This document shows, piece after piece, positions 1,507-44,410 of a DNA stretch of 51,843 bases. The stretch comes from a virus (Duplodnaviria; Heunggongvirae; Uroviricota; Caudoviricetes). The DNA lies in the IMG/VR virus record IMGVR_UViG_2851949629_000002. One strand, given 5' to 3'. The notes below the pieces were generated by a model. The model did no database searches. It saw only the letters and a list, made by a program, of their open reading frames with translations, and had not been told where the DNA came from. A program made the translations under genes and the position numbers. The number at the start of each line of letters is the position of its first letter. Within the stretch, counting starts at the first letter, position 1.

Positions 1507-2088
1507 TTACCCTATAGGTGCTACTGGCCATTCAATATCCGGTGCAGTTGTTGTATTAACACGGTTCAGCAACACCCGATACTTCTTCCATGCTTCCAGC
1601 AACGAGATTTCTTCCTCCGTTGCGATTTCCAGATCTACAGCATCCTGAAGTGGCGCAATATGCTCACTGGCTACCTGCATCAGGCTGTTTTTTGTTTCTT
1701 CCGCCTCCCGGATCCGGAACAGTTTTTCTGCTTCCGTATCCTTCACCCAGGCTGTGCCGTTCCACTTCTGAAACTCCCCTTCCGGCGATAACCAGGTAAC
1801 ATTTTCCGGTAACGGACCGAGTTCAGAAATAAATAACGCGTCCCCTGACGCTACGTCATAAACCGTTTTACCCCGATGGTCTTCAACGAGATGCCACGAT
1901 GCCTCATCACTGTTGAAAACAGCCACAAAGCCAGCCGGAATATCTGGCGGTGCAATATCGGTACTGTTTGCTGGCAGACCTGTATGAGGCGGAATATATG
2001 CGTCACCTTCACCAATAAATTCATTAGTTCCGGCCAGCAGATTATAAATTTTTATGGTCCGTGGTTGTTCACTCATTCTGAATGCCAT
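1507..2088 (-). CDS. tfa: Tail fibre assembly protein Tfa (lambda-like)
   Basis: 193-aa ORF beginning [24 protein letters not shown], near-identical to lambda Tfa as recalled; overlaps stf stop. Confidence 0.9.
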
Positions 2089-25766: not shown

Positions 25767-26444
25767 ATCATAACGTCCGGTTTCTTCCGTGCCAGAACCG
25801 GACTCGCTGGCATGATGAAATATGTGTACCCGGTAACCCCGGTGTGCATCGTTTTTGATTATTCCCGCACACTCGCGCAGAAGGAGTTCCCCGTCGGGCT
25901 ACGGTCTCTGTTAATACGGGAATACGGCGACGATACAGCGCATGATGTGTCAGGCTTGAATACCTTTATCCTTTAAAAGGGATATCAGTTAAGTTATCCC
26001 GTGTAGGGTATAAGCCATTATCAAAGCCACTCTGTAGGGAATGGCTTTTGTGATGGCATCACTTACTCTTTACGCTGCTATCCCACTCATCCCGGAATTT
26101 TGATGGGTTATTGAAACCTTCTGCTGACATAACAACTCCTTCAATGTTTGGCTGAAATTAGGATGTCTTTCCATCAGTCCGCCACCACAAAGAATCTTTT
26201 TTGCCATAAGGCAGGAGGTTCATCTTTCAGTGGCTGCCGGTGTTATTTCCCCACTTACTGGCTTGGGTTGTTTCGTGGTACTGCCGTTAACTGGTGGCGC
26301 ACAGATTTAGTTAAATCCGTTCTCGCCTGAACTATCTTTTACATACCCGGATTGTGGGGATGTAAATCACGGTTTCATTATCAAGCCCACCAGTAGATGG
26401 GCTTTGTAATGAAGAGTTGTTATGAAAATTGCTCTAAACAAGCA

Positions 26445-26969
26445 TTAATAGCCATCAGAAGTAATCGCTACAGATTTCAATCCCTCAATGTCATCCTTGG
26501 ACAGGGCGAACCATTCACCGTGCTTTCTCTTTGCGGCAAATTTGCGATGAAGCATGTTTTCAGTTTCTCTTCCACCAGGGATCAGGCACTCAAGCTTCAA
26601 GCAGTCTGGTCCAGAGTTGCCAAGCGATTTGATGCGTTGTGGAATGTTGGATGAATACCCAATTTTGGTTAGCCCAGTTTTCTTCGATGACAAAACGTAT
26701 ACCTGAGGAGGTTCTTTTCTCTGGTCTTCCATTACACGTCTCATTGTTGCCATAAGTCCGCCGTGCATCAGCATTTCAACAAAGAACGCTGACCGAACAC
26801 CTGACGACTTAAGCATGCCAGAAAATTCACTTGCCAATTCCATTAACTCTGCGATGTTTTCAGGAACTTTTTGGCAGTTATCTTCCTTGTATAAGGAAAT
26901 CATTCTTTGAAGCTTTTCTTCTAATTGGTTCATAGCGTCTTTACCTTTTAGAAAGTGAGCCTGTCTCAC
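26445..26969 (-). CDS. T5orf172 (GIY-YIG-like) domain protein, moron
   Basis: 174-aa ORF; C-terminal VYVLSSKKTGLTKIGYSSNIPQRIKSLG...ENMLHRKFAAKRKHGEWFAL fits the T5orf172/MUG113 motif pattern as I recall it; sits where lambda carries bor. Confidence 0.55.
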   Translation of the reverse strand: MRQAHFLKGKDAMNQLEEKLQRMISLYKEDNCQKVPENIAELMELASEFSGMLKSSGVRSAFFVEMLMHGGLMATMRRVMEDQRKEPPQVYVLSSKKTGLTKIGYSSNIPQRIKSLGNSGPDCLKLECLIPGGRETENMLHRKFAAKRKHGEWFALSKDDIEGLKSVAITSDGY

Positions 26970-27082
26970 AGAAAAGCCGCCCCGAGATGGTCGCCACCAT
27001 ATACGGCAGTTCTCAGGCTCAACTTTCTGAAAGGCTCGGGTGATGTAATATGCGCGTGAGATGCGCTGTGAAATTCAGATGT

Positions 27083-27108
27083 AAAAAAAGCCCCGCATCG
27101 CGAGGCTC
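27083..27108 (-). terminator. Rho-independent terminator after Rz (end of lysis cassette)
   Basis: Minus strand AGCCTCGCG-loop-CGGGGCT hairpin followed by TTTTTTT, ~30 nt past the Rz stop. Confidence 0.55.
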
Positions 27109-27138
27109 ATTAAATGGACTTTGTGATTTGCAAAAAAA

Positions 27139-28306: not shown

Positions 28307-28878
28307 AACCCCACCTCGCAGACAAAGCGGGTGTAAATTGAGGGAATACTACGAAACGTAACAGACTCGGAGTCAGTGAATAACTCAGGTATTGGGTTAT
28401 CAGCTAATATCGAGACTCAAAAAATGGAAAAACCCGCTCGACGGCGGGTTTAAGCTGTGTGACGAAGTAACCACTCTTAACAGCATAACCAATTTTTTAC
28501 GTACGTAAACCACTAAATGATATTTGCGAGAATGCTACCGAGTATTGAAAACACCACTACAAATACATAAGCAAATCTCAACAAATAACCAACAAATAAT
28601 TTCCAGTGTTATTTTTAGCCGGTTTAAATTGAACCTTCAAATTATAGAGCACTTATAAATAACAGCCGTTAATATAAATTGGCTAATAGATTTATTTTTA
28701 TTCAGCCAAGAGCCATGAATAGGATTCGATAGAAAAAAGTTCAGATAAAAATAGAGATCTACTTCACAAATCAAACGAGAAACCAAAACTTACATCTTGA
28801 AATAATCACATTGATTAGATGAATATTTATCGCGCAGTGACATCATTTTTTAATAATAGTTCAAAAAAAGGGCTCACG

Positions 28879-29976
28879 ATGAAAAAATTAACAGTGGCAA
28901 TTTCTGCTGTAGCTGCATCAGTACTGATGGCGATGTCTGCTCAGGCAGCTGAAATTTATAATAAAGACAGTAACAAGCTGGATCTGTACGGGAAAGTTAA
29001 TGCTAAGCACTATTTCTCCTCTAATGATGCAGATGATGGTGATACTACTTATGCCCGTCTTGGCTTCAAAGGTGAAACCCAAATCAACGATCAACTGACT
29101 GGTTTCGGTCAGTGGGAATATGAATTCAAAGGCAACCGCGCTGAATCTCAAGGTTCCTCCAAAGATAAAACCCGTCTTGCCTTCGCTGGCCTGAAATTCG
29201 GTGACTACGGCTCCATCGATTACGGCCGTAACTACGGTGTAGCATACGACATCGGTGCGTGGACTGACGTCCTGCCAGAATTCGGTGGTGACACTTGGAC
29301 TCAAACCGACGTGTTCATGACTCAACGTGCAACTGGTGTTGCAACCTATCGTAACAACGACTTCTTTGGTCTGGTTGATGGTCTGAATTTTGCTGCTCAG
29401 TACCAAGGCAAAAACGATCGTAGCGATTTCGATAACTACACTGAAGGTAACGGTGATGGCTTCGGTTTCTCTGCTACCTATGAATACGAAGGATTCGGTA
29501 TCGGTGCAACTTATGCGAAATCTGATCGTACCGACACTCAAGTTAATGCAGGGAAAGTTCTTCCTGAAGTATTTGCTTCCGGTAAAAATGCAGAAGTTTG
29601 GGCCGCAGGTCTGAAATATGACGCTAACAACATTTACCTGGCCACTACCTATTCTGAAACCCAGAATATGACTGTATTTGCTGATCACTTCGTTGCTAAT
29701 AAAGCCCAAAACTTCGAAGCTGTTGCACAATATCAGTTCGATTTCGGTCTGCGTCCGTCCGTTGCTTACCTGCAATCTAAAGGTAAGGATCTTGGAGTAT
29801 GGGGCGATCAGGACTTAGTCAAATATGTTGATGTAGGTGCAACCTATTACTTCAACAAAAATATGTCTACTTTCGTTGATTACAAAATCAACCTGCTTGA
29901 CAAAAATGACTTCACTAAAGCACTCGGTGTAAGCACTGATGACATCGTTGCTGTAGGTCTGGTTTACCAGTTCTAA
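28879..29976 (+). CDS. OmpC-family porin (Lc/NmpC-like), lysogenic-conversion gene
   Basis: Track ORF starts at 28819; likely start is [23 protein letters not shown] signal peptide; 16-strand porin motifs, ends YQF. Confidence 0.85.
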
Positions 29977-30165: not shown

Positions 30166-30564
30166 TTAATTAGAGTTATTAACAACGATATCCATCTCTA
30201 ACCGGATATCTAATGCCATTAACATCCCTTCAATTATACCCTCAGCCTTCTGTAACCTTTTCCCGATATAACCATCAGAGCAGCAATGCTTACCTGCCAG
30301 TGACATGAATGTCATACCGACTACATAATAATCTACTAATAAATCGTGCAAATCGCTGTTGTTCTTTTTCAGACGGGCCATGCACCCGCAAATGATCATC
30401 GCGTCATCGTCACAACATTGCGGGCGAGATTTTACTTTTGAAGTAATTAATCCCTTAAAACCGGCGGCAATGGACGACCAGGTCACATCTTCATGATTAT
30501 TAGCCGCCCACGCTCCCCAACGCTCAAGAACCATCTGAATATCACGCATCAACTTACTCCACAA
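30166..30564 (-). CDS. Q: Late antiterminator Q (phage 21/DLP12 QuuD-type)
   Basis: Contains [34 protein letters not shown]..., DLP12 QuuD as recalled; true start may be the internal Met (~30549). Confidence 0.8.
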
Positions 30565-44197: not shown

Positions 44198-44269
44198 GTG
44201 CGGCTTTACCGCATACCAATAACGCTTCACTCGAGGCGTTTTTCGTTATGTATAAATAAGGAGCACACC

Positions 44270-44410
44270 ATGCAATATGCCATTGCAGGGTGGCCTGTTG
44301 CTGGCTGCCCTTCCGAATCTTTACTTGAACGAATCACCCGTAAATTACGTGACGGATGGAAACGCCTTATCGACATACTTAATCAGCCAGGAGTACCCAA
44401 AAATGGATAA
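44270..44410 (+). CDS. cIII: cIII (FtsH inhibitor)
   Basis: [46 protein letters not shown] with AAGGAG RBS. Confidence 0.85.
   Translation: MQYAIAGWPVAGCPSESLLERITRKLRDGWKRLIDILNQPGVPKNG

Follow-up and report, generated by a model that had tools for sequence, protein, structure and literature searches.

Locus and gene call

The window, the whole stretch of 51,843 nucleotides analyzed here, is a lambda-like E. coli prophage with its late operon on the minus strand. Pfam matches verify the co-oriented order Q, S, R, Rz, the nuclease gene, Nu1, and terminase (Table 1). An intact nmpC/OmpC-like porin gene (28819-29976, plus strand; Porin_1, E = 6e-157) separates Q from the holin gene and is antisense to the late operon; its K-12 DLP12 homolog, nmpC, is disrupted by IS5. 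Elsewhere in the window, Rfam gathering-level matches are obtained for IS009 (1547-1745, minus strand, 229 bits), within the tail-fiber assembly region, and for the lambda cIII thermoregulator (44257-44315, plus strand, 88.5 bits).

Table 1. Coordinates of the nuclease gene, its leader, and the neighboring features in the window
Feature	Coordinates	Strand	Description
Q antiterminator	30169-30564	late-operon strand	Pfam
Lysis cassette (P21-type holin, lysozyme, Rz)	between porin and nuclease gene		Pfam
Intrinsic terminator after Rz/Rz1	27081..27108	-	stem GAGCCTCGC/GCGGGGCTT, loop of 3, then T-run
Conserved structured leader	26928..27078	-	~135 nt; terminator-to-ATG interval
Leader 5' hairpin	27066-27052	-
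Leader long multi-helix hairpin	27034-26944	-	basal helix CCUUU.AG pairs with CU.AAAGG (Shine-Dalgarno region)
Shine-Dalgarno AAAAGG	26944..26949	-	from sequence; paired in leader helix 1, pairing conserved with covariation
Nuclease CDS	26445..26933	-	162 aa + stop; RefSeq/HK106 start ATG 26933
N-terminal domain	26721..26933	-	residues 1-71; three long helices, net acidic, family-specific
C-terminal T5orf172/MUG113 GIY-YIG-fold domain	26469..26705	-	residues 77-155; Y79, K90, G92, R100, E125, H129, E140, W141, F142
Hairpin AAGCCCA-N8-TGGGCTT	26383..26404	.	40 nt 3' of stop; downstream cassette junction
Conserved downstream flank	25870..26412	.	common to HK106, HK620, Louie, P22, and others; with the leader brackets exchangeable cargo
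DUF1398 (ybcV-like) + DUF3950 (ylcI-like)	between nuclease gene and Nu1	opposite strand	Pfam
Nu1 + large terminase	beyond ybcV-like/ylcI-like genes	late strand	Pfam

The initial annotation described the gene as an ORF of 174 residues. That frame is present (26445..26969, minus strand), but its GTG start at 26969 is almost certainly wrong and the true length is 162 residues. The GTG falls within the conserved leader hairpin. ATG 26933 is the start used by RefSeq and by the HK106 record, AAAAGG (26949-26944) is positioned 10 nt upstream, and unrelated cargo genes of other phages meet a common upstream sequence exactly at this ATG position; together, these observations identify it as the real start. 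The product is identical to WP_016245257, an Enterobacteriaceae "GIY-YIG nuclease family protein" (BE2-5 annotation), and differs from HK106 gp64 (YP_007151734) at a single residue (M61R). The nuclease gene has a GC content of 0.43-0.45, compared to 0.53 for Rz.

The nuclease domain

The initial annotation assigned a T5orf172/MUG113 (GIY-YIG-type) domain from the sequence, and Pfam bears this out, with both families scoring above their curated cutoffs. MUG113 (PF13455) gives E = 7.4e-15 and 55.7 bits against a cutoff of 22.3, and T5orf172 (PF10544) gives E = 3.3e-10 and 40.8 bits against a cutoff of 20; the matches span residues ~78-151 in the 162-residue numbering. The generic Pfam GIY-YIG model stays below threshold (E = 0.18). 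In PHROGs, the whole protein falls into phrog_4284, annotated as "unknown function", and an NCBIfam search found no family for the 162-residue protein.

The AlphaFold2 model (pLDDT 87) features three long helices (residues 3-71) and, C-terminal to them, an alpha/beta domain (residues 77-155). The latter has the beta-beta-alpha-beta-alpha core of the GIY-YIG fold, and SLX1-type enzymes are its best structural neighbors. Fold searches with the whole model retrieve only generic helical bundles. A PDB sequence search with the single protein yields no match, and one with a profile of 46 domain sequences yields one marginal match, the UPF0213 GIY-YIG protein 1zg2 (E = 0.14).

Across 46 diverse homologs of the domain (30-66% identity), Tyr79, Lys90, Gly92, Arg100, Glu125, Trp141, and Phe142 are invariant, and Ile91, His129, Arg136, Gly139, and Glu140 are at least 90% conserved. 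The hhalign comparison with the I-TevI catalytic domain superimposes Tyr79 on Tyr6, Lys90 on Tyr17, and Arg100 on Arg27. In the I-TevI query used, the catalytic residues carry the numbers given for them in the literature. An invariant Lys, Lys90, stands in place of the second Tyr. By pattern (ETEN versus ERENF), Glu125 would be the counterpart of I-TevI Glu75.

The catalytic-type residues are kept in the abundant natural variants. A single minor Salmonella variant (P0002, a cluster representative that is 98% identical) carries E140G, together with D110Y. Truncated or frameshifted alleles also occur (P0169, P0172, P0176, and L043). The E140G substitution and the broken alleles suggest that the gene may be inactivated occasionally.

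The domain family is large. An exhaustive HMMER search returns 11,204 representative proteins at E <= 1e-3, and nearly all of the best 150 of these matches are restricted to the nuclease domain. Relatives with several domains were checked for a SNIPE-like DUF4041, and none was found. We note that in one 168-residue protein from the representative search (P0061), the N-terminal domain of a small terminase (Terminase_2, E = 6e-15) is joined to MUG113/T5orf172. Judging from this domain pairing, P0061 may be a nuclease directed to the packaging site.

The N-terminal domain

The three-helix N-terminal domain is net acidic by residue count and contains no Cys-rich Zn-finger. A Pfam run on four such domains gives no match, and hhalign finds no similarity between the domain and the Rha/ORF11CD3 cargo described below. 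In the representative search, it is always joined to this nuclease domain, in proteins of ~160 residues and a few longer ones. A homing endonuclease is expected to pair its nuclease with a sequence-specific DNA-binding module; here, the N-terminal domain has no Pfam match and the retrieved folds are generic helical bundles. Sequence-specific targeting is therefore unsupported, as the domain is acidic and without a recognizable DNA-binding fold or Zn-finger modules.

Transcription

The strong terminator initially reported after Rz is indeed present. Its stem (27108-27088) has 9 bp with 6 GC pairs and encloses a loop of 3, and a T-run follows. The same spot in 66 related loci is occupied by hairpins of differing sequence, each with a T-run. 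The gene was also proposed to form its own transcription unit, and this view is not supported: a consensus scan calls no sigma-70 promoter between terminator and ATG, and the gene is co-oriented with the late operon. The HK106 record annotates promoters by consensus similarity at other positions and none at this gene. The sole promoter candidate, TTCACA-16-TATTAC, is weak, occurs in the window-type leader only, and is missing from the other leader variants. On the minus strand, the hairpin at 26383-26404 lacks a T-run; it is terminator-like solely when read on the plus strand (TTTGTAATG tail), so the gene does not have the downstream terminator in its own orientation that is typical of a moron. 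Two other moron features are seen, namely the deviating base composition and a slot content that varies among relatives.

The nuclease gene runs in the same direction as Q-S-R-Rz and Nu1, whereas bor, ybcV, and ylcI are on the opposite strand. In lambda, a single Q-modified pR' late transcript must cross the genes between Rz and Nu1. Because the nuclease gene is on the late strand in this interval, the Q-antiterminated transcript would run through it in sense.

A conserved structured leader

The interval between terminator and ATG folds with a minimum free energy of -64.6 kcal/mol (z = -3.5). The sequence is nearly invariant in 66 distinct loci despite their differing upstream terminators and lysis genes. 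These first loci were fetched by an exact 28-mer and, being nearly invariant, are uninformative for covariation; divergent copies of the leader were gathered through protein-based locus searches. In an independent MAFFT alignment of 25 sequences (A8), 98.4% of cells are paired. Compensatory changes are observed in 14 of 25 pairs, whereas shuffles give 2.5+-1.3 (0/500) and slid controls 1-4.

A covariance model built from this alignment (R1) scores 155.7 bits against the window and matches 28 loci outside it. All but one of these matches (27/28) are located just 5' of the start of a Rha gene (46-95% identical) or a T5orf172 gene (33-49% identical); the remaining one is truncated at its 5' end by the contig end. 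When the alignment is made with the covariance model, 21 of 25 pairs covary and 96.9% of cells are paired versus 78% in shuffles, though such an alignment leans towards the model. An Rfam search finds no family matching the leader. The leader precedes Phage_pRha, KilA-N, HNH_3, and T5orf172 cargo in many lambdoid and P22-like phages. Three unpaired motifs are nearly invariant: GGGCGG, UUCUGUG, and a UGGCG loop.

The leader has the properties of one that sequesters the ribosome-binding site, with a conserved structure, compensatory changes, and the Shine-Dalgarno sequence held in a helix. In addition, the inner helices followed by UUUUCU appear to resemble a second, weak terminator. Two other interpretations of the leader were discarded. 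The CTGT-N3-ACAG element has the wrong spacing for a LexA box, and the 19-codon ORF that could represent a leader peptide is confined to the window variant. With a terminator upstream, the gene on the late strand, and its Shine-Dalgarno sequence paired in the leader hairpin, the cargo is predicted to be silent in lysogens, as in the absence of antitermination generally, and to be gated at translation even when transcribed.

The post-lysis slot and its cargo

The gene had been placed in the "bor position", and the comparison with K-12 agrees. In the DLP12 prophage, borD sits between rzpD/rzoD and ybcV, and the window gene sits between Rz and the ybcV homolog; homology of the window with K-12 picks up again on the ybcV side. 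The boundaries of the cassette are sharp. The upstream junction is the ATG itself, and the downstream junction is found ~35 nt past the stop codon, at about 26412, just upstream of the hairpin at 26383-26404. Homology to HK620 and Louie restarts here, at CATTACAAAGCCC (about window 26412). About 195 phage records, among them those of P22, HK620, and phage L, share the segment 26162-26296 of the downstream flank at 92-98% identity. In P22, this segment is located just past the 3' end of rha and before the pid locus.

Inspection of the neighborhood in other prophages, as the initial annotation had proposed, reveals that slot and junctions recur while the cargo content varies. The majority of loci enclose Phage_pRha, with or without ORF11CD3, between the same junctions. 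Others enclose KilA-N, again with or without ORF11CD3 (HK620 hkbK and others). A second T5orf172 lineage in the slot is represented by epsilon34 gp68, which is 33% identical. One IMG/VR locus (L076, UViG_2847562356_000005) carries a 160-residue HNH_3 endonuclease behind the same leader, and thus two unrelated nuclease families occupy the slot. The post-Rz slot of phage Louie is leaderless and contains a Tad2-like (Thoeris anti-defense 2) gene (L003:642-1109, minus strand; PF11195, E = 9e-27), annotated in its record as "anti-CRISPR protein".

More distant homologs occupy comparable positions. One that is 49% identical (P0014) follows an unrelated lysis cassette, is co-oriented with it, and precedes terminase; epsilon34 gp68 is in an equivalent co-oriented post-lysis position. 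The coding sequence is 99-100% identical across loci with 11 upstream and 11 downstream flank clusters. This identity across varied flanks, together with a GC content below that of Rz, indicates that the gene is a recently spreading cassette. Presence/absence polymorphism and a near-identical gene in diverged genomes are as expected of a homing gene, and recombination in the flanks explains them equally well. Indeed, homologous recombination in the conserved flanks fully explains the spread of the cassette, and homing is not required. Of the suggestion that the gene is a "defense or DNA-targeting cargo", the exchangeable cargo stands, given the low GC and the 11 + 11 flank clusters; the defense part is without direct support.

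Distribution and previous annotation

The identical protein is found on at least 1000 contigs under the name [quoted passage not shown]. Of 5426 complete E. coli genomes, 81 contain the gene, and its identity is at least 99% throughout. The GTDB species representatives contain one locus only, on a contig that is probably mis-binned. In E. coli BE2-5 (L001, NZ_CP032986 3316397-3329297), the gene is preserved, intact and 100% identical, in a decayed DLP12-like remnant at argU. This remnant has an IS3 insertion, and its Rz, Rz1, small-terminase, and tail genes have decayed to pseudogenes.

For HK106 gp64, epsilon34 gp68, and g341c gp64, the annotation does not go beyond "GIY-YIG nuclease family protein" or PHROG 4284. 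A literature search found no paper on HK106 gp64, this protein family, or the leader. As a gene, the nuclease is already annotated and ordinary: it is one more small T5orf172 nuclease, widespread among prophages of Enterobacteriaceae. There is more novelty in the leader.

Comparison with known systems

The closest counterparts are found in other lambdoid phages. HK106 gp64 is the same protein, one residue apart, in the same slot behind Rz and a terminator. Salmonella phage epsilon34 gp68, at 33% identity, has the same two-domain layout, slot, and leader. The Rha genes of phi80 and P22 and the KilA-N gene hkbK of HK620 share slot, leader, and start-codon junction with the window gene and are of similar size, but their products have other folds (Phage_pRha or KilA-N, each with or without ORF11CD3) and lack a nuclease domain. 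Henthorn and Friedman are reported to have found in 1995 that rha harms phages growing in IHF mutants. Lambda bor and DLP12 borD occupy the same position, between Rz/Rz1 and the cos-proximal genes, but encode an unrelated lipoprotein on the opposite strand. The bor gene has its own promoter and is expressed in lysogens.

Among characterized T5orf172 proteins, Odn (Gp88) of phage ICP1 combines a specificity domain at its N-terminus with a T5orf172 nuclease at its C-terminus; the nuclease has conserved Arg and Glu residues, and the E180A substitution inactivates Odn (PMC8263062). During lytic infection, Odn acts as an anti-satellite nuclease that cleaves a competing mobile element (PMC8263062). 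The specificity domain is a DNA-binding RepA_N domain that was copied from the element Odn attacks, whereas the N-terminus of the window protein is an acidic helical bundle; going by the published description of Odn, the likeness of the two proteins does not extend beyond the T5orf172 domain family to which both belong.

Homing endonucleases with a T5orf172 domain occur in ICP1, T5-like, and other phages as free-standing genes at the boundaries of genetic exchange, often near terminase (Barth et al. 2023, PMC10448857). In 87% of them, CapR, DUF723, or DUF4397 Zn-finger DNA-binding repeats are present (PMC10448857). The window gene has the nuclease domain family in common with these genes, but its product lacks the Zn-finger repeats. 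It also swaps with alternative cargo between conserved flanks and, unlike homing genes, interrupts no target site. CapR itself is a domesticated T5orf172 regulator encoded by PLE (PMC8096241).

SNIPE is a GIY-YIG host defense (PMC13190303) that needs a transmembrane anchor and DUF4041. The window protein has neither, with no DUF4041 match and no hydrophobic segment in the model. SNIPE and PD-T4-3 are both single-protein GIY-YIG defenses expressed by the host or lysogen, and PADLOC matches neither of them here.

Function of the gene product

The following features are directly supported: domain identity, fold, conserved catalytic residues, slot and cassette structure, strand, and leader structure. 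From these we infer the timing of expression, the nuclease activity, and the target. Our favored interpretation, which we put forward tentatively and at somewhat less than even chance, is that the gene is a tightly gated cargo encoding an Odn-like or homing-like DNA endonuclease for conflict or homing during the lytic cycle. The strand, the leader, and the conserved catalytic residues argue for it. The product would be a two-domain DNA endonuclease, composed of a family-specific three-helix N-terminus and a T5orf172/MUG113 catalytic C-terminus with intact active-site residues, and the gene would be one of several interchangeable cargoes in a lysis-to-packaging accessory slot of lambdoid and P22-like phages. 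Transcription would occur solely via the Q-antiterminated late transcript, the leader would then gate translation, and the protein would cut non-self DNA during lytic growth. It would probably attack co-infecting phages, prophages or satellites resident in the cell, or a target of the homing type, and its closest analogs are Odn of ICP1 and the T5orf172 homing endonucleases. The protein would not act as a lysogenic-conversion or defense factor. The N-terminal domain is the main weakness of this interpretation, as it gives no sign of sequence-specific DNA binding. The intact and identical gene in the decayed DLP12-like remnant would fit a host-beneficial role and counts against it, as does, weakly, the promoter candidate in the leader.

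The same remnant and the low GC agree with a nuclease for defense or superinfection exclusion, expressed by the prophage at a low level from the weak leader promoter and cutting incoming phage DNA. The slot hosts lysogenic-conversion and conflict genes elsewhere (borD, Tad2-like), and a weak, partial PADLOC match is obtained to an unvalidated candidate, PDC-S57 (E = 7e-6); however, no validated defense HMM in PADLOC-DB 2.0 is matched, and both DUF4041 and a membrane anchor are missing. The gene shares the strand of the late operon, which bor, ybcV, and ylcI do not, and no promoter is called; the upstream terminator, the terminator-like leader hairpin, and the sequestered Shine-Dalgarno sequence point to silence without antitermination. 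With just 81 of the 5426 complete E. coli genomes carrying the gene, we consider such a defense role unlikely. T5orf172 is also reported, by Iyer et al. in 2002, to take part in a Bro-N/KilA-N domain-shuffling network. A leader, start-codon junction, and size (160-180 residues) like those of Rha/KilA-N cargo could accordingly be read as signs of an equivalent DNA-binding or antirepressor-like regulator whose T5orf172 domain binds DNA without cutting, as in CapR. That T5orf172 is part of this network (PMC8096241) and that a natural variant carries E140G are in line with this, but similarity to the Rha/ORF11CD3 cargo is undetectable by hhalign and CapR acts via a Zn-finger domain that is missing here. 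The catalytic-type residues, invariant in distant homologs and kept in abundant variants, likewise speak against a non-cutting regulator, which appears quite improbable.

Finally, the protein could be a structure-specific or packaging-associated nuclease that resolves branches or assists terminase, as HK97 gp74 HNH or SLX1-type enzymes do. The gene is found with lambda-type (Nu1/A) and HK97-type packaging systems alike, and is optional, since the slot of close relatives contains Rha, KilA-N, or nothing comparable. These observations make a packaging role very improbable, even with SLX1-type enzymes as the best structural neighbors, a gene position immediately 5' of the packaging genes (and beside a gp74-like HNH in HK106), and the fusion of a small-terminase N-terminal domain to MUG113 in P0061.

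A more ambitious interpretation makes two claims at once. The leader would represent a new class of phage riboregulator, its invariant unpaired motifs read by a protein, RNase III, or a ligand, that gates the translation of any DNA-binding or DNA-cutting cargo present in a universal post-lysis slot; and the T5orf172 protein would be a new single-protein conflict nuclease, its N-terminal domain sensing or targeting a satellite, a competing phage, or a host defense component. Taken jointly, this is a proposition we would not expect to hold.

The wider interest is in the slot. It is a sharply bounded post-lysis exchange site that takes Rha, KilA-N, HNH, T5orf172, bor, or Tad2-like genes, and most of its cargo sits behind a single RNA leader, supported by covariation, in which the ribosome-binding site is concealed. 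Should this leader truly gate translation, it would explain how phages can carry potentially toxic, DNA-acting cargo. It would also give a point of entry to the Rha and KilA-N genes, which have long defied explanation, as well as a compact regulatory part. If the nuclease targets satellites or rival phages, the ICP1 Odn paradigm would extend to coliphages and Salmonella phages.

Other features of the downstream flank

The downstream flank includes a perfect inverted repeat, TTTACAT-N15-ATGTAAA (26338-26366), with the look of an operator. The segment 26162-26296 contains AGGAGG on the plus strand. A plus-strand hydrophobic ORF of 26 codons (26230-26310) found with it was considered and set aside; its coding status is doubtful, and its C-terminus frameshifts among loci. 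The hairpins at 26383-26404 and 26016-26056 are similar, each with CATTATCAA before it and a T-rich tail after it on the plus strand. They are candidate terminators of plus-strand transcription converging on the nuclease gene.
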